64,000 bases of DNA from an uncultured Candidatus Saccharibacteria bacterium (GTDB taxonomy: Bacteria; Patescibacteriota; Minisyncoccia; Phycocordibacterales; UBA918), in NCBI GenBank assembly GCA_964593375.1, contig CAZQIF010000001.1, positions 6,405 to 70,404 of the forward strand, written 5' to 3'. Made by a program: the position numbers and the translations under genes. Every line of letters begins with the position of its first letter. Within the stretch, counting starts at the first letter, position 1. Shown one piece after another: positions 5,953 to 52,080 of this stretch. Below the pieces are notes generated by a model. That model was not told where the DNA came from, made no database searches, and saw only the letters and a program-made list of their open reading frames with translations.

Positions 5953-7458
5953 TTAGTTTTGTGTTACTGATACTTTGTCACCTTCCTTGAGTCCGCGGGC
6001 ATCGGTAATGATTCGACTGTCTGAAGTCAGTCCGTCGGTAATAAGTACTGAATCACCAGTGATGCTTCCCAGTGTAACGGGGTATGCAACAAGCGTTCCA
6101 TCGTCGCTTACACCAAAGGCAACAGACACTGAAGCAAGAAGCTTCAGTGCTTTAAGTGGTACGACAATAGTAGCATCTCCAGTAGCTTCCTTCGTAGGTG
6201 CAAATACAACCGAAACAGTGCTCCCGTTCTTAAGTGTCAGTGATTCATCAACACTTATTTTTACCTCACTCTTTCCTGTAAGAGGATCAATTGCAGGTGC
6301 AATTTGAGAAATGGTTCCCGTAGCGGAGTTGTTTATGAATACAGTGTCTCCAATATGCACACGTGCAAGGTCCTTTTCGCCGAGCGCGGTACTAACCTCA
6401 AGTGCACCATTGTTTGCAACAATGGCTGCAGGCTGTCCGGGGTTTATATACTCTCCTGTTGTTACGTAAAGGGCATTTACCACACCACCGATAGGAGTGC
6501 GTACGAGTGTTTTCTCGTAGGTAACTTGTGCACCGCGGAGTGTACCAAGTGCACCTTTGAGAAGTGCACTTGATTGTGACACGGTATCAGATGAAGATGA
6601 GAGTACAGCCTGATCGTATCTGAGTCTTGCTCCAGAAATAGAAGCAAGTGCTCCATCGAGTGATGCACGTGCTCCAGCTAGCCGAGACTGATATTCTTCA
6701 ACTTCTGATTCTGAAAATTGTTCAGTAGATTTCTTATCTGTTAGAGCAAGAGCAAAAGCTGCTGTTAGATTACCTACATCAGTCACAACAAGTTCAGCAT
6801 AAGCAAGCATTTCTGATTCACTTATCTGTATAGAATTGTCGAGAATATCTTCAGACCAATTATCTAACTTAATCTCAATATCCTCACGCTTGCTATTAAA
6901 CTCAGGGGCTTTTCCTGTCCCTCCAAGTTTAAAATATACAACTGTCTCTGTAGGTCTCGAATAGAATTCATCGATTAAATTCCTTACTACATTCTCTACT
7001 GTCGAAAAAGTATCTTTGTAGGTGTTGCGCACACCTACTTTGGCTTCATCAAGACTTGAACCACTCTGGAGAGAGCTCGCAAGAGCAGATTCGTACGCTG
7101 CTTCAGCTTGGAGAAGCTGTGCACGTTCGCGAGCATTATCAATCGAAGCAAGTACGGTACCCGCACTAACTCTATCTCCAATTTTCACGTTCACCGAAGT
7201 GATTCTACCACCCGCTTCAGCTTGGAGTGTTGCTTCAGAGATGGCTCGTACGGTTCCTACGACAGAGAAGCCCCCACTTGAGCTGAATGATGAAACACTT
7301 TGTAGTGTCACCATAGGAAGTATCTCGGCGGTCTCACTCTGATTTTCATCAGAACCACTGAGTACAAAGTACAGTGCTACAACTACGAGTAAAACGAGTA
7401 CAGAAAGTACTCCGATGACAACACGTTTCCCATACCAACTATAAAGACGGTTTAACAT
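5953..7458 (-). CDS. efflux RND transporter periplasmic adaptor (HlyD/membrane fusion protein family)
   Basis: N-terminal TM anchor, then long coiled-coil segments and a beta-barrel / lipoyl-like C-terminal domain (..GDRVSAGTVLASID.. / ..HIGDTVFINNSATG..). It sits immediately upstream of the RND permease on the same strand. Confidence 0.85.
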   Translation of the reverse strand: MLNRLYSWYGKRVVIGVLSVLVLLVVVALYFVLSGSDENQSETAEILPMVTLQSVSSFSSSGGFSVVGTVRAISEATLQAEAGGRITSVNVKIGDRVSAGTVLASIDNARERAQLLQAEAAYESALASSLQSGSSLDEAKVGVRNTYKDTFSTVENVVRNLIDEFYSRPTETVVYFKLGGTGKAPEFNSKREDIEIKLDNWSEDILDNSIQISESEMLAYAELVVTDVGNLTAAFALALTDKKSTEQFSESEVEEYQSRLAGARASLDGALASISGARLRYDQAVLSSSSDTVSQSSALLKGALGTLRGAQVTYEKTLVRTPIGGVVNALYVTTGEYINPGQPAAIVANNGALEVSTALGEKDLARVHIGDTVFINNSATGTISQIAPAIDPLTGKSEVKISVDESLTLKNGSTVSVVFAPTKEATGDATIVVPLKALKLLASVSVAFGVSDDGTLVAYPVTLGSITGDSVLITDGLTSDSRIITDARGLKEGDKVSVTQN

Positions 7459-16700: not shown

Positions 16701-18242
16701 ATGGCCAAGATTCCATCAGCTGTTGCTGAATCGCATCTGTCACATCTTCTCGGGCGCTATTTGCACCGTTTCCACCAAGGCAAGGTTCGGGATTCATACC
16801 TGCTTCCGGATTACGACGACCTCATGCTCGTTGTTGCAACCAATCGCTGCAGTATTTTTGACTTTGTCCTCAACACCACCATTCCGCACAAAGGAGCAAT
16901 CCTCACGGCAATGAATGTGTTTGGAACGAAGTACATCGTCGGCGACCTTTGCCCAACCGACTTAGTTGCCTGTGGAAGCGACATTGTGCGGTATCTCCCA
17001 CGAGAACTTCGGGGAAATATCGAACTGCAAATGACAGGAACGGTTGCGCGGAAGTTCATACCGCCGACGGTTGAGGATGTGGTGCGTAACGCAATAACGG
17101 GAAGTGGCTACAAGAGTTACTGCAAGGATGGCACCATTTGTGGTCACCGTCTTCCACCTGGACTTCAGAATGGTAACTTACTTCCGTATCTGCTCTACAC
17201 ACCAACAACAAAAGCATCTGTTGGTCATGATGAGCCGATTACCGCTGATAGCGTAGGTCTGCAATTTGGACCAGCACGGGAGCGACTCAGTTTGCAACTC
17301 ACTGCGCTTGCCGTACGTCATGCACTTTCGCGCGGTCTCATTCTCGCTGATACAAAGGAAGAGCTCAGTTACTTCGTGAATAAGAACGAAGAGCGCGAGT
17401 GGGTACTCGTCGACGAACGTTTTACGCTTGACTCGTCGCGTATCTGGGACAAACGTGCGTGGGAAATGGCGCAACGCGAAGGAAAGTTGCCACCATCGTT
17501 CGATAAGCAGTATGTGCGTGGCTGGGGCGAAGACAATGGCATCAATGGGACGCTCAATCCCGAAGATGAAGAAGTTCTCGCTCGTGTTCACGCACAAGTT
17601 GTCCCCGATGATGTGGTTCTGGCCTCCACAAAGCTATTTCGCTACGGTTTCTGGCGGTGGACTGGTCAGAAGCTGGAGAATTTTCAGCGAATTGAAATGG
17701 GAATTGACGTTCATGTTCCAAGGCCGAGTGTGCATGTAATCGTGGGGAGCAATAGCGATTTCTTGCAAATTGAGCACGGCATCTCGCACTTTGAATCACA
17801 TGGAATTGAGCACAAGGTGCACGTCATCAGTTGCCACCGCAACCGCGACGAGTTGGCGAATTATGTTGCTGACATTGCACAGCACCAAGAAGGTCGTCCT
17901 GACCGCATCATCGCTGGGGCCGGTATGGCTGCAGCACTCCCTGGAGTGCTTAAAGCTGAGCTCTGCAACTTTGGCCTCAAGGAGATTCCGGTCATTGGTG
18001 TTGCATTTCAAGGAAAGTCTGACACAGACAATCTCGCTGCACAGCTGTCTATCGAGCGCCTTCCTGAAGAGCCTGTTGAGCTCGACAAGGCCGGCAATGC
18101 GTACTTTGGCTCTGAAGGGTTCATGAGAGCATGTGACTCAGCGATACACGATGAATTTCTCACTCGTGGATATACGCACAAACCAGCACAGTTCAACGCT
18201 GACATTCGTCCATATCTTGCTGAAAGGGGTGTTCTCTCCTAA
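16701..18242 (+). CDS. bifunctional SAICAR synthetase (PurC-like, N-terminal) / AIR carboxylase-N5-CAIR mutase (PurE-like, C-terminal) fusion protein
   Basis: N-terminal GKVRDSYLLPDYDDLMLVVATNRCSIFDFVL matches the SAICAR synthetase signature. C-terminal VHVIVGSNSDFLQIEHG...ISCHRNRDEL...IIAGAGMAAALPGVLKAELCNFGLKEIPVIGVAFQ matches PurE. The gene is markedly GC-richer than its neighbours. Confidence 0.85.
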   Translation: MAKIPSAVAESHLSHLLGRYLHRFHQGKVRDSYLLPDYDDLMLVVATNRCSIFDFVLNTTIPHKGAILTAMNVFGTKYIVGDLCPTDLVACGSDIVRYLPRELRGNIELQMTGTVARKFIPPTVEDVVRNAITGSGYKSYCKDGTICGHRLPPGLQNGNLLPYLLYTPTTKASVGHDEPITADSVGLQFGPARERLSLQLTALAVRHALSRGLILADTKEELSYFVNKNEEREWVLVDERFTLDSSRIWDKRAWEMAQREGKLPPSFDKQYVRGWGEDNGINGTLNPEDEEVLARVHAQVVPDDVVLASTKLFRYGFWRWTGQKLENFQRIEMGIDVHVPRPSVHVIVGSNSDFLQIEHGISHFESHGIEHKVHVISCHRNRDELANYVADIAQHQEGRPDRIIAGAGMAAALPGVLKAELCNFGLKEIPVIGVAFQGKSDTDNLAAQLSIERLPEEPVELDKAGNAYFGSEGFMRACDSAIHDEFLTRGYTHKPAQFNADIRPYLAERGVLS

Positions 18243-25104: not shown

Positions 25105-27891
25105 ATGAGAATAAACTTTTCTGAAGTACAACGTAATGTCTCCGAGATTGCTAATCGCCAACAGTATACAATCAATGTGCTATATGAACTGATGGCTGCT
25201 TATGGTCGCTCTGCTTCATCAATCACGAAGCTTAGAAACGGAGTCAATAATCTCGCCGCTGACAAAAATACTACTGTTCTCCAACGCGGTGTAGTTTATT
25301 TTAAAGTCATTCAAAATACCGGCAGTTTGCCAGCTCAAGTCGAAAAACTAGAACAAGACCCTTTAACACAGCGCTACAACCCACGCTTTTTAATTGCGAC
25401 TGACTTAAAAAACTTTGCAGCAAAAGACACGAAGAAAGGAAACACACTTGAAATTGACTGGACTAACATAGACAGAAATGTTGATTTTTTTTATGGCTGG
25501 ACCGGAGACGAGGTTACTAGCGAAAAGACCGAAGCCGTTGCTGACCGCAGAGCTGCAGATAAAATGAAGGAGCTATACCAAGAAGTCGAGAAGGTCAATG
25601 CAAGCAAGTTCAAAAAAACCGGAAAGGATTTTCGTCACAATCTCAATGTATTTTTCACACGCCTGCTTTTCTGCTTCTTTGCTGAAGATACCGGGGTTTT
25701 TGCAAAAGAAGAGAGAGGAGTTTTTACAAGTGCAATACGTGATTATACGCAGATAGACGGTTCGGACTTAGATCAATTCCTCGGGACACTTTTCGAGTCA
25801 CTTGATGAAGAAGATAAAAGTATCTTCACTAGTCCATTTTCTAAGTTCCCATATGTAAATGGAAGATTGTTCGATAAGACTTATGGAATAGAAATTCCAA
25901 AATTTAATGCGCAGTCACGGCATCTTATTCTTGAATGCGGTGCACTTAGTTGGGCCCAAATCAATCCAGACATATTTGGTTCGATGTTCCAGAGTATTGT
26001 TGATGAGGAACATCGCGCTACTCACGGGATGCACTACACAAGCGTGCCAAATATTATGAAGACTATAGAGCCCCTATTCCTAGATGAACTCCGTGATGAA
26101 TTTGATAAATATTATGATGACCCAAAAAAGTTACAAAAACTGCATGAAAGGATATCAAAGATAAAAATATTTGATCCAGCTTGTGGCTCAGGAAATTTTT
26201 TAATCATTGCTTATAAGGAACTCAGAAAACTAGAACATGCCATTATTGAGCGTCTGTTTGAAGATGAATACATTGCCAATCAGCTTAAGAATAAGCTGCA
26301 ATCAAGTATTGACCTGAATAATTTCTACGGAATTGAGATAGATGATTTTGCGTGTGAGGTTGCTGTACTTTCGCTTTACTTGACTAAACATCAAATGAAC
26401 TTGGAGTTTGAAAAGCAGTTTGGTAGGGAAATCAAACTCATCCCACTTGTAGATAAGGCCAATGTTATTCACGGGAATGCAACCAGACTCGATTGGCAAG
26501 AAGTTTGCCCAAACGTCCCAACAAAGAAAAGTATGATTACTGAGCTGCAAGGACAGCTAATTGTGACTGAAGAAAATACCAATCACCTTCTGATGGAGAA
26601 TGAATGGGATGAAATATATCTCATTAGTAATCCTCCGTACTTGGGTCAACCTAATCAAGAAGATTCGCATAAAGCGGACATGGATTTTGTATTTGGGGGG
26701 TTACAGGGTAAGTTTAAGAAACTTGACTATGTCGGGTGTTGGTTTTTTAAGGGTACAGAATACATATCCAATACAAAAGCAAAATTAGCATTCATATCAA
26801 CTAACTCCATTTTTCAAGGTGTTCAAGTTGAGCAACTTTGGCCAAAATTATTCAGTCATAATATCGAGATTCAGTTTGCTTTTTCTCCTTTCAGGTGGAC
26901 TAACAACGCAAGAGATAATGCGGGTGTGTATGTGACTGTGGTCTCCTTAAGAGTGAGAGGAAAGTCAGATAAGTATTTGTTTATTGATGGAATCAAGTTG
27001 AAAGCGCGGAACATTAACGCATACTTGATTGATGCAGATAACATAATCGTAGGCAAGACAAAGCATTCGATTTCAAGCCTACATCCAGTGCTAGGGGGGT
27101 GCCAGCCACGTGAGGGTGGGCATCTCATGCTGTCCGATAAAGAGAAGCATGAGTTGTTAAAAAGATCTCCAGAAGCAAATAGATTCATCAAACCGATGAT
27201 TGGCACAAATGAACTAATTAAGGGAACTCGGAAGTGGTGCATTTGGATAGAAGATTCAGAACTAGATGAAGCTTTCAAGATTAAGGAAATCAAGGAAAGA
27301 GTAAACTCTGTCCGAGCGCATAGAATCTCTGGAAATTCAGTTGAGCGAACATTTGCTAACGTTCCTCATAGGTTTGTTACAATCAAACGCCCAATGGCGC
27401 ATCAAATTGTAATTCCTAACTTAACACCCATTGATAAACCTTATCTTCCATTAGGATACTTAAATAGAGAGTACATTGTAAATAAGCAAGCATATTGCAT
27501 ATTTGACTCTGGTTTGGAATATTTTGCACTTTTAATATCAAAAACTCACATGAAATGGCTCGAAGTAGTTTGCGGTAGATTGGGCAACGCAATAAGCTAT
27601 TCTGCACATATTGGATATAATACTTTCCCGGTAAAGAATATGGATGAAAGTGAAGTTAATAAGCTAAGAGCTTCGGCCAGGGAAATATTATTTACACGAC
27701 AAAATCATTCAGAAATGAGTTTGGGAGAGCTGTACTCTACAACCACCATGCCAGATGATTTGCGTGAGGCGCATCATCAAAATGACTTACTGGTAGACAA
27801 GTTATATCGACAAAAACCGTATGCTAATGATGAAGAACGACTGACTGACTTGTTTAAATTGTATGAAGAAATGATAACTAAAGAGAAATAA
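25105..27891 (+). CDS. MmeI-family Type IIL-like restriction-modification protein (N-terminal nuclease-like domain, gamma-class N6-adenine DNA methyltransferase, C-terminal target-recognition domain)
   Basis: There are long collinear matches to MmeI: RLLFCFFAEDT, FPYVNGRLF, IFGSMFQSIVD, HYTSVPNIMKTIEPLFLDEL, FDPACGSGNFLIIAYKELRKLE (motif I), FYGIEIDDF, HQMN, NPPY (motif IV), FISTNSIFQGVQVEQLWP, FAFSPFRWTNNA, AYLID, RKWCIWI, YNTFP. The upstream segment PRFLIATDLKNF parallels MmeI PRYVLVCDFQRF. Confidence 0.9.
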   Translation: MRINFSEVQRNVSEIANRQQYTINVLYELMAAYGRSASSITKLRNGVNNLAADKNTTVLQRGVVYFKVIQNTGSLPAQVEKLEQDPLTQRYNPRFLIATDLKNFAAKDTKKGNTLEIDWTNIDRNVDFFYGWTGDEVTSEKTEAVADRRAADKMKELYQEVEKVNASKFKKTGKDFRHNLNVFFTRLLFCFFAEDTGVFAKEERGVFTSAIRDYTQIDGSDLDQFLGTLFESLDEEDKSIFTSPFSKFPYVNGRLFDKTYGIEIPKFNAQSRHLILECGALSWAQINPDIFGSMFQSIVDEEHRATHGMHYTSVPNIMKTIEPLFLDELRDEFDKYYDDPKKLQKLHERISKIKIFDPACGSGNFLIIAYKELRKLEHAIIERLFEDEYIANQLKNKLQSSIDLNNFYGIEIDDFACEVAVLSLYLTKHQMNLEFEKQFGREIKLIPLVDKANVIHGNATRLDWQEVCPNVPTKKSMITELQGQLIVTEENTNHLLMENEWDEIYLISNPPYLGQPNQEDSHKADMDFVFGGLQGKFKKLDYVGCWFFKGTEYISNTKAKLAFISTNSIFQGVQVEQLWPKLFSHNIEIQFAFSPFRWTNNARDNAGVYVTVVSLRVRGKSDKYLFIDGIKLKARNINAYLIDADNIIVGKTKHSISSLHPVLGGCQPREGGHLMLSDKEKHELLKRSPEANRFIKPMIGTNELIKGTRKWCIWIEDSELDEAFKIKEIKERVNSVRAHRISGNSVERTFANVPHRFVTIKRPMAHQIVIPNLTPIDKPYLPLGYLNREYIVNKQAYCIFDSGLEYFALLISKTHMKWLEVVCGRLGNAISYSAHIGYNTFPVKNMDESEVNKLRASAREILFTRQNHSEMSLGELYSTTTMPDDLREAHHQNDLLVDKLYRQKPYANDEERLTDLFKLYEEMITKEK

Positions 27892-27892
27892 T

Positions 27893-29851
27893 ATGAACAA
27901 GGAAACAATAAACATAATAGAAAATGAGTATGAGCAGACGGGTGCAAGTAAGCGTCAGAATGAATTTGGCATGCGTGAGATGCAAGTGCGAGCCTATGAA
28001 AAACGTAATAGTAATCATTTACTGATTAAAGCTCCACCTGCATCTGGTAAATCTCGGGCACTAATGTTTATTGCCTTGGACAAACTACACAATCAAGGTA
28101 AGAAGAAAGTAATTGTGGCGGTACCCGAAACTTCAATTGGTGCTTCATTTTCTAGTATCAAACTTACAGAAAACGGTTTCTATGCTGACTGGGTTGTAGA
28201 ACCGATGAATAATCTATGTGCAGGTACTTGTGATGATAAAAGTAAAGTTAAGGCTTTTGTTAGATTCATGAATGGTGAAGATCGAATACTTGTTTGTACT
28301 CACGCAACACTTCGCTTTGCTTTTGAGGAGATACCATCCAAAGATTTCAATGACTGCGTATTGGCAATTGATGAATTCCACCATGTCTCAACGAGTGATT
28401 CGAGTCGGCTAGGAGAATTGGTCAGAAATGTGATGCGTGATTCTAATGTTCAAATGATTGCAATGACCGGGTCATACTTTCGAGGTGATGCTGTGCCCAT
28501 ACTTCGTGCAGAGGATGAAATGAATTTTGATAAAGTCACTTACACTTACTACGAACAACTTAACGGGTATGAGTACTTGAAAACCCTGGGCATAGGTTAT
28601 CACTTCTATACCGGAAACTACCTCGATAAAGGCGCGCTCGATAGTGTGCTAGATACAACAAAGAAGACCATCATTCATATTCCAAATGTGAATTCAAAAG
28701 AGTCAACACAGATTGGTAAGGATGAAGAGGTGCAACATATCTACGGTATCATTGGTGAATGGATCGAACAGGATTCCGATACTGGTATAGAAATTTTAGA
28801 AACAGAAGATGGTAGAAAATTGAAGATCGCAAATCTTGTGGAGGATGAACCAATTCATAGAAGCAAGTTAGACAAATATCTAGCTGACGTGGCTCGAGAT
28901 AGTATCGATGGCGTAGACATTATCATCGCACTTGGTAAGGCAAAAGAAGGATTTGATTGGCCATTTTGTGAACAAGCACTCACCATCGGGTATCGAGCAA
29001 GTCTAACTGAAATCGTACAAATAATAGGTCGTTGCACGAGAGATAGCTACAACAAAAACCACGCACAGTTCACAAATTTAATCGTTCAACCAAATGGAAC
29101 ACAGGATGATGTACAGGTATCGGTCAATAACATGCTCAAGGCGATTACCGCTTCTTTACTCATGGAGCAGGTCCTCGCCCCTAACTTTACTTTCAAACCA
29201 AGGACATCCCCACGAGATAAAACTTCTGCAGGGGAGGTGTTTGTCAAAGGACTCAGACAACCAACGAATGAGAAGGTGAAAAGAATACTGGAAACCGAGT
29301 TGGAAGATTTAACTGCTGCTGTTCTGCAAGACACACAATATCAAAGGTCCGTAGCAGCAGACCATTCTCCTGAGTATCGCAAGCACTTGCAATCAAAAAT
29401 AATTCGAGAAAAACTGCCTGGTCTCACTGACGAGGAAGTGGAGACAACAAGACAGTATCTCGCTAGCAACCTGGCGTTTAAAACCGGAAAGATAACTGCA
29501 GATGGAGATAAGAAATTTATTACCATGGCAAATAGTTTCGTTAATCTTGATGATTTGACCATTGACTTGATTGATTCTGTGAACCCATTCCAGCATGCGT
29601 TTGAGGTTATTTCTAAAAAAGTAGGTGCTGATGTATTCAGGGTCATTCAGGATACGATTGCTGGTTCACGTATAGATATGTCAGACGAGGATGCACTTGT
29701 GCTCGTTCCTCAAATAGAGTCGTTTGTCGTCACTCACAATGGTCAACACCCAAAACTGAATTCAAACGACAAGAATGAGAAGTTACTAGCACAGGCAAAA
29801 GCGTATCTCACTGCTAGATATTCTCAAATCATGAGGGATAAGCAAAAATAA
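27893..29851 (+). CDS. SF2 helicase-family ATPase (DExH box), 652 aa
   Basis: Motif I APPASGKS, Ia VAVPETS, II DEFHH, III MTGS, VI QIIGRCTRD. The start codon lies 1 bp after the stop of the methyltransferase gene. Confidence 0.85.
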   Translation: MNKETINIIENEYEQTGASKRQNEFGMREMQVRAYEKRNSNHLLIKAPPASGKSRALMFIALDKLHNQGKKKVIVAVPETSIGASFSSIKLTENGFYADWVVEPMNNLCAGTCDDKSKVKAFVRFMNGEDRILVCTHATLRFAFEEIPSKDFNDCVLAIDEFHHVSTSDSSRLGELVRNVMRDSNVQMIAMTGSYFRGDAVPILRAEDEMNFDKVTYTYYEQLNGYEYLKTLGIGYHFYTGNYLDKGALDSVLDTTKKTIIHIPNVNSKESTQIGKDEEVQHIYGIIGEWIEQDSDTGIEILETEDGRKLKIANLVEDEPIHRSKLDKYLADVARDSIDGVDIIIALGKAKEGFDWPFCEQALTIGYRASLTEIVQIIGRCTRDSYNKNHAQFTNLIVQPNGTQDDVQVSVNNMLKAITASLLMEQVLAPNFTFKPRTSPRDKTSAGEVFVKGLRQPTNEKVKRILETELEDLTAAVLQDTQYQRSVAADHSPEYRKHLQSKIIREKLPGLTDEEVETTRQYLASNLAFKTGKITADGDKKFITMANSFVNLDDLTIDLIDSVNPFQHAFEVISKKVGADVFRVIQDTIAGSRIDMSDEDALVLVPQIESFVVTHNGQHPKLNSNDKNEKLLAQAKAYLTARYSQIMRDKQK

Positions 29852-46683: not shown

Positions 46684-47204
46684 TAGAGACCATACAAACA
46701 ACAAATTATATTCTGGCGCTCGGCGGTATAGTAATTTTTTTGTTATCAACACTATTTGTTGTTGATTTGTACACAAGCAAATCGCTCAAGCCACTCATTT
46801 CGAGGTGGTGGCTTTGCTTAGCGCTCGCTACAACATTTGGCTCCTCTATGATGACTCTCGTCTACTCAGAAATTTTTGGACTAGTACCTTGTGGCCTTTG
46901 TTGGTTAGGGCGACTATTTCTCTTTCCACAAGTTTTTCTGCTTGCGACTGCTCTCTATTACAAAGATAAAATGTTCGCGCGATACGGAATCGTGCTTTCA
47001 TCATTAGGATTCTGTGTTTCGCTTTATCATCACTATATACAAATGGGTGGAAGTGAGTTCATTAAATGTCCAGCCTCAGGAGCGAGCTGTACACAACGAT
47101 TTCTGTTTGAATTTAACTTTATTACGTTTCCACTCCTTTCAGCGGGGCTCTTTTTCTTTTTAATTGTGCTCTATTACTACGTGCTCAAAGTAGGTAGTGA
47201 TTAA
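46680..47204 (+). CDS. disulfide bond formation protein B-like / VKOR-like membrane oxidoreductase (partner of the thioredoxin-fold protein)
   Basis: Four TM helices. Cys pairs sit in loops (LVPCGLCW; FIKCPASGASC). It overlaps the thioredoxin-like gene by 4 bp (ATGA). Confidence 0.65.
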   Translation: MIETIQTTNYILALGGIVIFLLSTLFVVDLYTSKSLKPLISRWWLCLALATTFGSSMMTLVYSEIFGLVPCGLCWLGRLFLFPQVFLLATALYYKDKMFARYGIVLSSLGFCVSLYHHYIQMGGSEFIKCPASGASCTQRFLFEFNFITFPLLSAGLFFFLIVLYYYVLKVGSD

Positions 47205-47476
47205 CTCATCTCAGTCGGTGGGTTTGCCTTTTGTACTGGGCTTACGATATTCGGATTCCATTCAGCGACAATTTTGCCATGCGCAGTTTCATATTGTTCT
47301 ATCTCATGCGTGAGATATTGAAGTAATCGCTTAGTATGTCCGGGGGTAAGCGAGTAGATTGTTGCCTGTGTTCCTGAGCTCATGCCGATAGCAAAAAATT
47401 CTGGAGTAAATCCAATTTTGATATTTTCACAAAAAAGTTTTGGTGCTTTCTGAAGATCTTCTGATTGCATACGCAT
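47201..47476 (-). CDS. hypothetical protein (DUF3467-like, 91 aa)
   Basis: ..LFCENIKIGFTPEFFAIGM.. resembles the DUF3467 core. The family name is recalled from memory. Confidence 0.5.
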   Translation of the reverse strand: MRMQSEDLQKAPKLFCENIKIGFTPEFFAIGMSSGTQATIYSLTPGHTKRLLQYLTHEIEQYETAHGKIVAEWNPNIVSPVQKANPPTEMS

Positions 47477-48869: not shown

Positions 48870-49180
48870 TCTGTAGTTTGCTTTACTAGTTCGTCGCAGA
48901 ATGAATCGACAGCTCTGCTGCGAGAATGAATGCGACAAATGTTTAGTATGGCAGAGGCCATATCCTTAGCTAGAAAACTGCCCATGGTCCTATGCGGTTA
49001 GCACAGGGCAGTTTACTGGTGAGCGCCAAGAATGCCCTGTCTCGTTAGAGCGGGGCTGAATTGGCGATTAAAATTGCGTCTGCGGTGGCAGACTCATATG
49101 CCAGAACAGCAACCTGGTGTTTGTTGCAACTCACTAATGCTCTGCATTAGTGAGTTGCAACAAACTTGCTTTACTTGTTA
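48870..49180 (+). promoter_or_regulatory. structured 5' leader of leuS ending in a 22-bp perfect terminator/attenuator hairpin (49119-49140 / 49144-49165) 55 bp before the start codon; candidate T-box-like or other attenuation element
   Basis: Several nested hairpins (GTCGCAG..CTGCGA, AAACTGCCC..GGGCAGTTT, GTCTGC-ggtg-GCAGAC), two GAATGAAT units, and a GGTGG motif upstream of the terminator. The T-box consensus is not convincingly matched. Confidence 0.45.
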
Positions 49181-49233: not shown

Positions 49234-52080
49234 ATGCATAAAAAATTTGACCACGAATCGATAGAAAAGAAATGGCAGAAGGAGTGGAAGGAACGTGGTC
49301 TCTATGACGTCGGTGAACGCGACCTCGCTAAGGAAAAAGAGTACGTACTCGTTGAATGGCCATATCCCTCTGGCAACCTCCATATTGGGCACTGGTTTGC
49401 CTTCGCGGTTGTCGACATCTATGTACGCACAAAACGCATGCAGGGAAAGCAGGTGCTTTTCCCGATGGGTTTTGATGCATTCGGCCTTCCAGCTGAAAAT
49501 GCTGCGATAAAGCGAAATCTCGACCCAAAGGCGTGGACATACGAGAACATGGCGTTCATGCGCTCACAGCTTGAGAGTATGGGAAATGCATTCTCGTGGG
49601 ACAAAACTACAAGCTCAACAGACCCTGAGTACTACAAGTGGACACAATGGATGTTTATCAAGTTTTTTGAGAACGATATTGCGTTTCGTGGAAAGGCAAC
49701 CGTGAACTGGTGCCCAGGGTGTAACACGGTGATTGCAAATGAACAGGTCTTGCCTGATAACACCTGTAACCGATCGGGGGATGTTATAGAGAAACGTGAT
49801 GCAGAACAGTGGATGCTTCGCATAACAAAGTACGCTGACAGGCTCATTGATTCACTCGACACACTTGATTGGCCAGAGCATATTAAGGAATCACAACTAC
49901 AGTGGATTGGGCGAAGTAAGGGTGCCGAACTGACGTTCCCACTTTCAACCGGCGATTCACTTACGGTTTTCACCACACGTCCTGACACACTTTTTGGGGC
50001 AACATATGTCGTGCTTGCTCCTGAACATGAGCTAGTTTTGAAAAACAAGGACTTGATAACAAACTGGATTGAAGTCGAGACATATATCAAAGAAGCGTCA
50101 CAGAAAGATGAGATTGACCGAACGAATGCGAATAAAGAAAAAACTGGTGTACAACTTCAGGGAATTACCGCAACAAACCCCGCAACAGGTGAAGAAATTC
50201 CAGTGTATATTGCCGATTATGTACTCAAAGGCTACGGAAGCGGTGCAATCATGGCAGTGCCGGCACACGATGAACGCGACTTTGCGTTTGCAACTAAGTT
50301 TGGTCTCAAAATTCAACAAGTTATTGCACCTCTATTCGTTGAAAAGCATAACCCACCAAAAGAAGGTCTTAAGGATGTAAGGAGAGATACTATTCTTGTC
50401 TTTCTGCGTGACACCGTTACTGACACATACGCTCTTCTTGACTGGCATAAAACACTTGAAGGTATTACCACAACCATCATGGGGGGTATTGAAGAAGGAG
50501 AAGATGTGCAGACAGCGGCACTTCGAGAAATTGCTGAGGAAAGCGGAATAACATCAGCACGTTTTGTTAAGGAATCACCATGGATTTCTGAAGCAAAGTA
50601 TTGTGCCTCACACAAAAATGAGAACCGGCATGCAATTGCAAAGGTATGTCTTTTTGAGGTTGATGGCGTTTCGCCGGAAATCAGTGTGGCAGAAAACGAA
50701 ACTGAAAATCATACGCTTCGATGGGTTCATCGAGATATGATTGAGAGTTCACTTACACCTCCGCACCAAAAGTTCTGCTGGAGAACAATACTTTCTGATT
50801 TTGCAATATCTGAAAGTGGTAATCTCATCAATTCAGGAGAGTTTACGGGAATGAATTCAGAGGAAGCTAAAATTGCAATCACAACGAAAGTTGGCGGTAA
50901 GCTTGCTAATACGTATCGTCTTCGTGATTGGTCTATCGGGCGACAGCGCTACTGGGGAGTTCCTATTCCTATTGTCTATGATCCAGAGGGGAAAGCACAC
51001 GCAATACCAAAGGAACATTTGCCATGGCATCTGCCAACCGATGTCGATTTTAAACCAACTGGTGAGGCACCACTCGCAAAGAGTCAGGAACTTAAAGAGC
51101 GAGTTAAGAGGATTTTTGGAAAGGGCTGGACACCTGAGGTTGAAACGATGGACACCTTCGTAGATTCTTCTTGGTACTTCTTCCGATACTTTGACAACCA
51201 CAATGAGCTCGAACTTTCATCAGTCGAAAAACAGAAAGAGTGGATGCCGATTGATATCTATTTTGGTGGTTCGGAACACAACACGATGCACCTTCTCTAT
51301 TCTCGCTTCTGGACTAAAGCACTTTACGATTTGGGTCTTTCAATCGTCGATGAGCCGTACGAGCACCGTATCAATCGTGGGTTGGTGCTTGGGCCCGATG
51401 GTAACAAAATGAGCAAGTCAAAAGGGAACGTTATTGACCCAGACGAGCAGGTGAAACGACTTGGTGCTGATACGGTCAAAATGTACCTTGCATTCATGGG
51501 CCCATACGGTGAGATGGCAAACTATCCATGGGACATGGGCGGAATTGTTGGTCTCCGACGATTTCTTGAACGCGTCTACGGACTTCAAGACCACGTTATT
51601 GAAGCAGAGCCACTTCTGACATCTCAATTACTCCACCGCACCCTTCAAAAACTCAAAAGTGATATCAATGCCTACAAATTTAATACGGCAATCAGTGCGC
51701 TTATGATTTTTGTAAACACTGCAGAAAAATCTGGACTTACTAAAGAAAGCTACCAAATATTTCTCAAGCTTCTTGCCCCATTCGCACCACACCTTGCTGA
51801 TGAACTTTGGCATGAAGTGGGGAATGAACATTCAGTCCATGAGGAAGCCTTTCCAGAAGCGGATTCAGAGCTTGCGCGAGTGGATGAAGCAACCATTGGT
51901 GTGCAGGTGAATGGAAAGATGAGAGGTTCTATCACAATTTCGAGTAATGCAACCGAGGAAGAGGCAGTGAAAGTCGCACTCAAGAACACTGCCATTAGTG
52001 AACGTGTGGGGAAGGGTATAACAAAGGTTATCTATAAGCAGGAGAGAATCCTTAATCTCATCGTATCCGAGTCAAGCTAG
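49234..52080 (+). CDS. leuS: leucine--tRNA ligase carrying an inserted Nudix hydrolase domain
   Basis: HIGH (NLHIGHWF), editing-domain signatures (TTRPDTLFGATYVVLAPEH, AVPAHDERDFAFATKFGL), KMSKS (KMSKSKGN) and the C-terminal domain are present. Between ..GLKIQQVI and ..LINSGEFTG the gene encodes an extra stretch of about 165 aa containing a perfect Nudix box GGIEEGEDVQTAALREIAEESGI (nt about 50482-50550). Confidence 0.93.
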   Translation: MHKKFDHESIEKKWQKEWKERGLYDVGERDLAKEKEYVLVEWPYPSGNLHIGHWFAFAVVDIYVRTKRMQGKQVLFPMGFDAFGLPAENAAIKRNLDPKAWTYENMAFMRSQLESMGNAFSWDKTTSSTDPEYYKWTQWMFIKFFENDIAFRGKATVNWCPGCNTVIANEQVLPDNTCNRSGDVIEKRDAEQWMLRITKYADRLIDSLDTLDWPEHIKESQLQWIGRSKGAELTFPLSTGDSLTVFTTRPDTLFGATYVVLAPEHELVLKNKDLITNWIEVETYIKEASQKDEIDRTNANKEKTGVQLQGITATNPATGEEIPVYIADYVLKGYGSGAIMAVPAHDERDFAFATKFGLKIQQVIAPLFVEKHNPPKEGLKDVRRDTILVFLRDTVTDTYALLDWHKTLEGITTTIMGGIEEGEDVQTAALREIAEESGITSARFVKESPWISEAKYCASHKNENRHAIAKVCLFEVDGVSPEISVAENETENHTLRWVHRDMIESSLTPPHQKFCWRTILSDFAISESGNLINSGEFTGMNSEEAKIAITTKVGGKLANTYRLRDWSIGRQRYWGVPIPIVYDPEGKAHAIPKEHLPWHLPTDVDFKPTGEAPLAKSQELKERVKRIFGKGWTPEVETMDTFVDSSWYFFRYFDNHNELELSSVEKQKEWMPIDIYFGGSEHNTMHLLYSRFWTKALYDLGLSIVDEPYEHRINRGLVLGPDGNKMSKSKGNVIDPDEQVKRLGADTVKMYLAFMGPYGEMANYPWDMGGIVGLRRFLERVYGLQDHVIEAEPLLTSQLLHRTLQKLKSDINAYKFNTAISALMIFVNTAEKSGLTKESYQIFLKLLAPFAPHLADELWHEVGNEHSVHEEAFPEADSELARVDEATIGVQVNGKMRGSITISSNATEEEAVKVALKNTAISERVGKGITKVIYKQERILNLIVSESS

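Follow-up and report, generated by a model that had tools for sequence, protein, structure and literature searches.

A Nudix domain cassette in the editing domain of a leucyl-tRNA synthetase from Patescibacteria

We analysed a 64,000-nucleotide stretch of contig CAZQIF010000001.1 from an uncultured Candidatus Saccharibacteria bacterium (contig positions 6,405–70,404). This stretch is referred to below as the window, and all coordinates are given in its numbering. Its gene for leucyl-tRNA synthetase (LeuRS), leuS, encodes a complete Nudix domain with a canonical metal-binding box. The domain forms a discrete cassette in a LeuRS that is otherwise intact, where it occupies a surface loop of the CP1 editing domain. 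By profile score, box and fold, the insert is a member of the Nudix superfamily. An earlier reading made from the letters alone (the sequence-only reading) had described an unusual fusion of Nudix and LeuRS at this position. The fusion is genuine, but it is not singular: it belongs to a large family of LeuRS proteins that carry one to three Nudix domains as well as other modules.

The Nudix cassette and its LeuRS host

The gene and the parts of its product are as follows.

49234..52080, + strand: leuS, leucyl-tRNA synthetase with insert, 948 amino acids (open reading frame; TIGR00396; full-length AlphaFold model)
49381..49392, + strand: HIGH, class I catalytic-site signature, residues 50–53 (H50, G52 and H53 invariant in 60 homologues)
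49909..50328, + strand: CP1 editing domain, part before the insert, residues 226–365 (PF13603 on residues 223–367, profile positions 2–143 of 185; aligns with Thermus thermophilus LeuRS up to residue 363)
49972..49989, + strand: TTRPDT, threonine-rich editing motif, intact, residues 247–252 (T247, T248, R249, D251 and T252 invariant in 60 homologues)
50266..50280, + strand: HDERD, editing-site motif with the conserved Asp, intact, residues 345–349 (H345, D346, R348 and D349 invariant)
50329..50802, + strand: Nudix domain cassette, 158 residues (366–523), in a CP1 surface loop, site B (Pfam NUDIX, AlphaFold, Foldseek; absent from T. thermophilus LeuRS and from the sister gene in locus L071)
50482..50550, + strand: Nudix box GGIEEGEDVQTAALREIAEESGI, residues 417–439 (overlaps the predicted helix 425–437)
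50599..50628, + strand: YCASHKNENR, subfamily motif with a near-invariant Lys, residues 456–465 (Lys at least 90% conserved in the insert alignment)
50803..51390, + strand: remainder of CP1 (from about GNLINSGEF) and second catalytic half (aligns with T. thermophilus residues 376–581; second PF13603 and PF00133 stretches)
51391..51420, + strand: GPDG linker replacing the leucine-specific domain, followed by KMSKS, residues 720–729 (KMSKS at 725–729; no counterpart of T. thermophilus residues 582–637)
51628..51963, + strand: anticodon-binding domain, residues 799–910 (PF08264, 71.3 bits)

The insert alone matched the Pfam NUDIX family (PF00293) with 41.1 bits (E = 2.2e-10; cutoff 21.1 bits), and the match remained above the cutoff, at 36.5 bits, when the whole LeuS protein was searched. 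It covers profile positions 3–128 of 134, and the resemblance is therefore that of a whole domain rather than of a chance motif. The sequence-only reading had called the Nudix box a textbook example, and indeed every position of the consensus GX5EX7REUXEEXGU is matched. An AlphaFold (AF2) model of the insert on its own, with a predicted local distance difference test score (pLDDT) of 91.8, showed a β-β-β-helix-β topology in which the box overlaps model helix 64–76. When this model was compared with the PDB using Foldseek, 488 Nudix chains were found at E ≤ 1e-3, and all 50 listed matches were Nudix proteins. The predicted fold is thus intact and the box is not coincidental.

The best structural match was an uncharacterised MutT/Nudix protein of E. 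faecalis (2AZW; TMq/TMt 0.72/0.83), followed by E. coli RppH, the diadenosine tetraphosphate (Ap4A) hydrolases of human, Chlamydia, lupin and Aquifex, and NudB. A sequence-profile search of the PDB led to the same neighbourhood and added AvrM14 Nudix effectors and NudC. In the structure and profile searches, diadenosine polyphosphate (ApnA) hydrolases were interleaved at similar scores with RppH, NudB, NudC, NudI and the uncharacterised protein. Asymmetric ApnA hydrolases of the NUDT2/IalA type have an aromatic signature downstream of the box; in the window LeuRS, the aromatic residue Y456 lies 17 residues downstream of it. RppH/NudH (E. coli 4S2W, 7SP3) and the asymmetric ApnA hydrolases (human NUDT2 4IJX; A. 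aeolicus 3I7U; lupin 1F3Y; Chlamydia CT771 4MPO) share the Nudix α/β/α fold and the canonical box with the insert. However, identity to these enzymes is 15–22%, TMq is 0.56–0.65 and scores fall far below the family cutoffs; they are also free-standing, whereas the window domain is embedded in a synthetase. In a set of 25 diverse inserts from related LeuS proteins, RppH models were the commonest NCBIfam matches (20 of 25 and 16 of 25), the best of them (E = 3.1e-09) being the window's own 36-bit match. From these comparisons, the insert appears best described as a distinct, LeuS-associated Nudix subfamily.

The boundaries of the cassette were defined by a phmmer alignment with T. thermophilus LeuRS (1H3N), which pairs query residues 3–365 with 2–363 and query residues 524–722 with 376–581. 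Because the flanks are matched on either side, residues 366–523 are extra and replace the 12-residue loop 364–375 of the T. thermophilus enzyme. Measured against the nearest insert-less relative, the replaced loop is 5–13 residues long, and insert-less LeuS of Patescibacteria have 11–26 residues at this position (site B). The insert splits the PF13603 editing profile at about position 143–146 of 185, some 17 residues past HDERD, and hence lies inside CP1. The sequence-only reading was right about an in-frame insert in leuS, but it had placed the insert after the editing domain, ahead of the point where the catalytic core resumes. Its segment of about 165 residues is the exact translation of 50326–50820; the T. 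thermophilus alignment puts the insert itself at 158 residues.

Around the cassette, the synthetase is intact. The leuS product scored 857.9 bits against TIGR00396, the equivalog model of bacterial LeuRS (cutoff 548.4 bits), and 201 bits against the editing domain family PF13603, with TTRPDT and HDERD both in place. HIGH, TTRPDT, HDERD and KMSKS were all invariant in an alignment of 60 homologues. With canonical bacterial LeuRS, as known from T. thermophilus (1H3N, 2BTE) and E. coli (4AQ7, 4ARC), the protein shares the HIGH/KMSKS Rossmann fold, the threonine-rich and Asp motifs of CP1, and the anticodon-binding and C-terminal domains (sequence E-values of 1e-201 and 1e-172). A full-length AF2 model, built with 60 homologues, reached a mean pLDDT of 88.2 (about 89–95 in the insert region). 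It superposed on the E. coli and T. thermophilus structures with TMt values of 0.78–0.83, and the synthetase core is therefore predicted to be native-like. No other aminoacyl-tRNA synthetase is encoded in the 64-kb window, which makes a within-genome comparison with IleRS, ValRS or MetRS impossible there.

The window protein departs from the canonical enzymes in two places, namely in the 158-residue Nudix domain that stands for the 12-residue CP1 loop, and in the tetrapeptide GPDG that stands for the leucine-specific domain (T. thermophilus residues 582–637). The leucine-specific domain precedes KMSKS in most, though not all, bacterial LeuRS. Among the 60 homologues, which are from Patescibacteria, GPDG is nearly invariant at this position. 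The minimal LeuRS of Mycoplasma mobile (3ZIU), likewise from a reduced-genome organism, has the tetrapeptide GKDG in place of the leucine-specific domain, and such a linker can be functional (PMC3643597). M. mobile LeuRS lacks CP1, however, whereas the window LeuRS keeps CP1 and has it enlarged by the Nudix cassette.

A chimeric assembly join inside leuS, which the sequence-only reading had named as a possible source of error, is unsupported. The reading frame is continuous, the composition is unremarkable and the architecture occurs in independent assemblies; the exact protein is also known from a 216,871-bp NCBI contig. Of the 120 LeuS homologues that score best, about 95 have an insert of 123–160 residues at site B, nearly all flagged as PF00293. 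These carriers come from NCBI, JGI, ENA and Logan assemblies and, where named, are Pacebacteria, Kaiserbacteria or Patescibacteria. Chimerism is excluded in practice.

Origin, spread and conservation of the insert

The closest relative of the window LeuRS is an insert-less protein of 801 residues (P0002, locus L071). Its core columns are 89.6% identical to those of the window LeuRS; all other LeuS relatives have 72–78% core identity, regardless of their cargo. L071 is perfectly syntenic with the window (DsbB, a small open reading frame (ORF), DUF5671, leuS, a sigma70_r4-like gene and DUF8128), its neighbouring genes are 82–96% identical to those of the window, and the difference between the two leuS genes is a clean in-frame indel. 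Insert-less LeuS of Patescibacteria have a conserved 11-residue loop, xGxExLPFxxx, which is intact in P0002 as SGLETIPFSTT. No recombined or foreign flanks were found around the insert, the window LeuRS being closest to P0002 along its full length. Because the loop is intact and the closest relationship holds throughout, P0002 would keep the ancestral state, and the window's lineage probably gained the cassette after the split from its insert-less sister. The syntenic sister enzyme also indicates that the insert is dispensable for the synthetase itself. A neighbour-joining tree of LeuS cores was star-like, at about 75% identity, and uninformative on one versus many insertions.

The 368-nucleotide gap upstream of leuS contains a perfect hairpin with a 20-bp stem (TTGTTGCAACTCACTAATGC, loop, reverse complement) at 49119–49165. 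It is unique in the window, and the corresponding gap in L071 measures 76 nucleotides. An Rfam search with this leader hairpin gave sub-threshold matches to generic hairpins only. The element may terminate transcription of the preceding gene, or it may be a palindrome with a regulatory role.

Using the motifs YCASHKxxN and LTPxHQKxxW, we retrieved loci of the window's insert subclade from 70 distinct species-level genomes, nearly all labelled as Candidate Phyla Radiation (CPR), including RAAC4_OD1_1 and GW2011_GWD2_42_14. The insertion is lineage-specific, as the sequence-only reading had supposed: it belongs to Patescibacteria/CPR. LeuRS of T. thermophilus and of the E. coli type lack it, as do many sister LeuRS. 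Three loci with a Patescibacteria-type LeuS-Nudix protein (L003, L004, L049) were found in metagenome-assembled genomes that bear the label Gammaproteobacteria or Actinomycetes. Mislabelling or contamination of these bins is the probable explanation, not an occurrence beyond the CPR.

An exhaustive profile search of 1.84 billion representatives returned 143 proteins at E ≤ 1e-30, 798 at E ≤ 1e-10 and 25,677 at E ≤ 1e-3. (A word-indexed search with the 165-residue insert alone gave no match, not even the identical protein in the same database, and was treated as a limitation of the index.) Our subfamily classification covers the best 150 representatives, of which 120 are LeuS or LeuS fragments and four more are divergent fragments, giving at least 124 of 150. 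Judged by these matches, the Nudix subfamily is almost exclusive to LeuS.

Within LeuS, Nudix domains occupy at least four sites: just before TTRPDT (site A), at the window's position (site B), in tandem right after LINS (site C) and in the second catalytic half (site D). A LeuS protein has one, two or three copies. In P0127, for example, the order is N-terminal catalytic part, Nudix, Nudix, first part of CP1, Nudix, second part of CP1, C-terminal part. Nudix-bearing LeuS proteins of Patescibacteria hold other hydrolases in such loops as well, either at site A, at site D or at a position ahead of the anticodon-binding domain (site E). These hydrolases comprise Ham1/ITPase modules (P0036, P0078, P0173, and a full 197-bit domain in P0174), HAD hydrolases (P0141, P0156, P0195) and α/β serine hydrolases (P0016, P0150, P0199, P0218, P0140, P0202, P0262). 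The LeuS fragment P0206 has a DUF559/restriction endonuclease (REase)-like domain at site A (PF04480, 106 bits, residues 278–390). Of all the modules, this one alone gives a hint that some inserts are selfish or mobile in origin. P0044, a Kaiserbacteria LeuS of 909 residues, carries an insert of 123–131 residues at site B (residues 366–488) that has no Pfam match and no Nudix box. Several further segments in LeuS loops are without a family assignment.

About two dozen of the best 150 matches are genuine free-standing proteins of 154–200 residues with a Met start. The gene for one of them (P0160) lies directly upstream of, and abuts, a leuS of 951 residues with its own Nudix insert, in the gene order of the window. 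Another (P0180) is encoded 2 nucleotides upstream of an insert-less leuS, with 22 residues at site B, in two NCBI assemblies. A separate Nudix ORF also abuts the start of leuS in three of the 70 subclade loci (L006, L008, L021). Fusion together with an adjacent separate gene is a Rosetta-stone arrangement, which ties the Nudix subfamily to leuS. A further free-standing member, P0226 (170 residues; L076 3016–4513, L077 110–1607), is encoded 4 nucleotides downstream of an Fpg/MutM-type DNA glycosylase. This GO-system-like pair hints at an oxidised-nucleotide role for some members. P0166 and P0269, also free-standing, have unrelated gene contexts, and the 64 kb of the window contain no other Nudix ORF.

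An extra, generic Nudix ORF was seen 0.8–1.8 kb downstream of leuS on the same strand in about 24 of the 70 related loci (L012, L014, L022, L024, L026, L029 and about 18 more). It scores 30–48 bits against the insert profile and has no counterpart in the window.

In the 25 diverse inserts, identity to the window insert goes down to 15–25%, yet none of them deviates at the G of GG or at the three Glu of RE..EE, and one Lys and one Trp further downstream show conservation of at least 90%. Of 280 domain copies of the family, taken across all sites, 270 have an unbroken E..EE triad. Over the same copies, the GX5E Glu and the box Arg co-vary, with E and R together in most and Q and A together in about one fifth. 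A fully canonical E/R box is found in 3 of 41 genes of the window's subclade, the window's own included. Nearly all multi-copy LeuS proteins (21 of 23) retain at least one fully canonical Nudix box, and in P0035, P0039, P0040 and P0051 a first Nudix domain with a variant box is followed by a canonical second one beside it.

The ratio of non-synonymous to synonymous substitution rates (ω) was computed in the only two locus pairs, from related genomes, in which synonymous divergence was unsaturated. It was 0.027 in the insert versus 0.022 in the core in one pair, and 0.143 versus 0.155 in the other. In close relatives, purifying selection acts on the insert as strongly as on the LeuRS core. Since both pairs carry the Q-type box, even this variant form is kept by selection.

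These results bear on the idea that the insert is an artefact or a neutral or selfish passenger, i.e. a mis-assembly or a junk insertion tolerated in the loop. Three observations could be cited for it: the GC content at third codon positions, which at 0.31 is slightly under every 158-codon window of the core (0.323–0.563; core mean 0.444), a 10-nucleotide imperfect inverted repeat that brackets the insert, and the DUF559/REase-like module in one related LeuS. The composition is only marginally outside the core range, and foreign origin as its explanation was set aside as not decisive. A mobile-element signature was rejected too, as inverted repeats at the boundaries are not enriched in 46 loci (7.3 nucleotides versus 7.05 in shuffled sequences) and the 10-nucleotide repeat is a chance occurrence. 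At least 70 genomes at species level share the architecture, as do about 95 of the 120 top homologues, which were assembled independently, and with ω at 0.03–0.14 and the catalytic triad conserved, the passenger idea is effectively refuted.

What the cassette may do

Our preferred reading, to which we give a probability of roughly 55%, is that the cassette would act as a metal-dependent pyrophosphatase on nucleoside polyphosphates and do so largely autonomously, as a housecleaning module carried by LeuRS. The Nudix domain would work as a Mg2+/Mn2+-dependent pyrophosphohydrolase of the RppH/ApnA-hydrolase/MutT type, with free nucleotides as its substrates, for example dinucleoside polyphosphates or non-canonical (deoxy)nucleoside triphosphates. 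Conservation of the E..EE triad and the low ω values (0.03–0.14) lend indirect support to divalent-cation-dependent hydrolysis of a nucleoside diphosphate-X substrate. In tiny genomes, LeuRS could provide an essential, constitutively expressed and insertion-tolerant carrier, and the HAD, Ham1/ITPase and α/β-hydrolase modules may ride the same loops for the same reason. The housecleaning theme fits the sharing of these loops by Ham1, HAD and α/β hydrolases, as well as the Fpg/MutM-type neighbour of one free-standing member.

Several observations weigh against this reading. The box is non-canonical (GX5Q, no Arg) in 35 of the 41 genes of the window's subclade, so that catalysis may be altered in these members. 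The window insert does not reach the curated cutoffs for RppH (NF001938, 36.4 versus 116 bits; NF001936, 22.1 versus 118 bits) or for the MutT 8-oxo-dGTP diphosphatase (TIGR00586, 12.2 versus 97.9 bits; NF008044, 14 versus 148 bits). Moreover, a mere carrier does not explain the tie of this Nudix subfamily to LeuS in particular. Insertion at four or more sites and operon adjacency amount to repeated selection for linkage, which indicates some functional coupling.

Coupling is the essence of an alternative, close to what the sequence-only reading had proposed, that we consider possible but rather unlikely, in which the attachment itself is the point and the cassette serves proofreading or alarmone control. 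The tethered Nudix domain would destroy Ap4A, Ap3A and adenosine tetraphosphate (p4A) made when ATP attacks LeuRS-bound Leu-AMP, and could also clear away damaged ATP analogues ahead of activation. Among its nearest relatives of known structure are ApnA hydrolases (human, Chlamydia, lupin, Aquifex) and RppH, which also cleaves Ap4A (PMC10148737). Synthetases are a recognised source of dinucleoside polyphosphates (ApnN; PMC7705103). In the portions covered, these two Ap4A reviews name LysRS and GlyRS and cite work on PheRS; LeuRS is not mentioned, which counts against the idea. The Rosetta-stone link to leuS, with fusion at several sites, one to three copies and adjacent genes, argues for coupling, as does the addition of a canonical second Nudix domain where the first has a variant box. 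On the other hand, the sister LeuRS manages without the domain, as do about 25 of the 120 closest relatives, and nothing obvious connects Ap4A with the HAD, α/β-hydrolase and DUF559/REase-like modules of the same loops. Nor is Leu-AMP a substrate of the Nudix type. An aminoacyl-adenylate is an acyl-phosphate anhydride rather than a nucleoside diphosphate linked to another moiety, which makes its hydrolysis by a Nudix enzyme chemically unlikely.

A broader and slightly more doubtful proposal is that the LeuRS of Patescibacteria could be a docking hub for nucleotide surveillance, on which the Nudix copies and, in related proteins, Ham1 and HAD modules act on nucleotides that arise at its active site or pass through it (such as Ap4A, Ap3A, p4A or damaged ATP analogues). 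If true, the synthetase would possess a third hydrolytic proofreading site, aimed at nucleotides instead of amino acids, and leucine charging would be linked to alarmone or nucleotide-pool control in nucleotide-scavenging organisms.

The box variants noted above raise the question of whether the domain acts as an enzyme at all. A non-catalytic Nudix-fold module might regulate or stabilise LeuRS through binding of a nucleotide ligand or of a tRNA or protein partner. The 35 subclade genes with neither the GX5E Glu nor the box Arg, on which purifying selection is nevertheless strong, agree with this view, and so does the multidomain setting, which is typical of non-catalytic Nudix domains (PMC5389931). 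The window's own box is fully canonical, however, and the metal-binding E..EE triad is kept in nearly all copies at every site. In addition, single-domain free-standing members occur, and the LeuRS of sister lineages work without the domain. Overall, we regard a purely non-catalytic role as improbable.

Somewhat less probable again is an RppH-like activity on RNA 5' ends, in which the RNA-binding surface of LeuRS would bring a pyrophosphohydrolase or decapping domain to 5'-triphosphate or Np4N-capped RNAs, possibly tRNA-Leu precursors. The frequency of RppH models among the NCBIfam matches of diverse inserts is consistent with such a role, and E. coli RppH, the probable pyrophosphohydrolase 3ees and AvrM14 Nudix effectors are among the best structural or profile matches; two free-standing relatives also gave weak matches to the Nudt16-like decapping profile. 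All RppH scores nevertheless lie far under the curated cutoffs (at most 36 bits versus 116–118), and no RNA-binding feature was identified. Nothing suggests an unusual 5' end of tRNA-Leu, and the window has no tRNA gene.

Synthetases are textbook cases of growth by domain accretion. An IleRS with a GNAT domain (NCBIfam NF040702, ileS_w_GNAT; known here from the family model alone) is likewise a class Ia synthetase with an extra enzyme domain, but both the synthetase and the accessory fold differ, and the window protein scores 74.6 bits against a cutoff of 1999. NadM-Nudix, the bifunctional NMN adenylyltransferase/ADP-ribose pyrophosphatase (NCBIfam NF003790), which is among the family matches of the inserts, also joins a Nudix domain to an adenylyl-transfer enzyme. 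That fusion is terminal and follows a known logic of NAD metabolism, whereas the window cassette is an internal insertion in an editing domain.

Full-text literature searches found no description of a LeuRS-Nudix architecture, or of a catalytic accessory domain inside the editing domain of a bacterial LeuRS, and a 2017 survey of the Nudix clan does not mention tRNA or synthetases (PMC5389931). The sequences are public and were automatically labelled leucyl-tRNA synthetase or class I tRNA ligase; the data are therefore not new, and it is the phenomenon, a phylum-wide pattern in which LeuRS takes up other small hydrolases besides one to three Nudix domains, that is apparently undescribed. It spans a major bacterial radiation rather than one genome. 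If the modules are autonomous, as in our preferred reading of LeuRS as a carrier, they would show how ultra-small genomes package housecleaning enzymes on an essential protein, and would offer protein engineers places in LeuRS that naturally tolerate insertions. Should they instead be coupled to the chemistry of LeuRS, they would represent a new form of translation quality control and a direct handle on Ap4A biology. Either reading is directly testable with recombinant protein, as the sister gene, with its 89.6% identical core, is a natural insert-less control.

Other features of the window

A second gene fusion of this small genome lies at 16701–18242, where a single ORF of 513 residues joins SAICAR synthetase (PurC) and AIR carboxylase (PurE). 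Its presence indicates some capacity for purine biosynthesis. At 25105–29851, a restriction-modification gene of the MmeI family, whose 928-residue product has all five MmeI domains, is immediately followed by a DEAD/ResIII helicase-like ORF (652 residues).

On the − strand, at 47201–47476, an ORF of 91 residues without a domain assignment shares 4 nucleotides with the end of the DsbB-like gene. It is 92% identical to its counterpart in L071 and is therefore probably a real small conserved protein.

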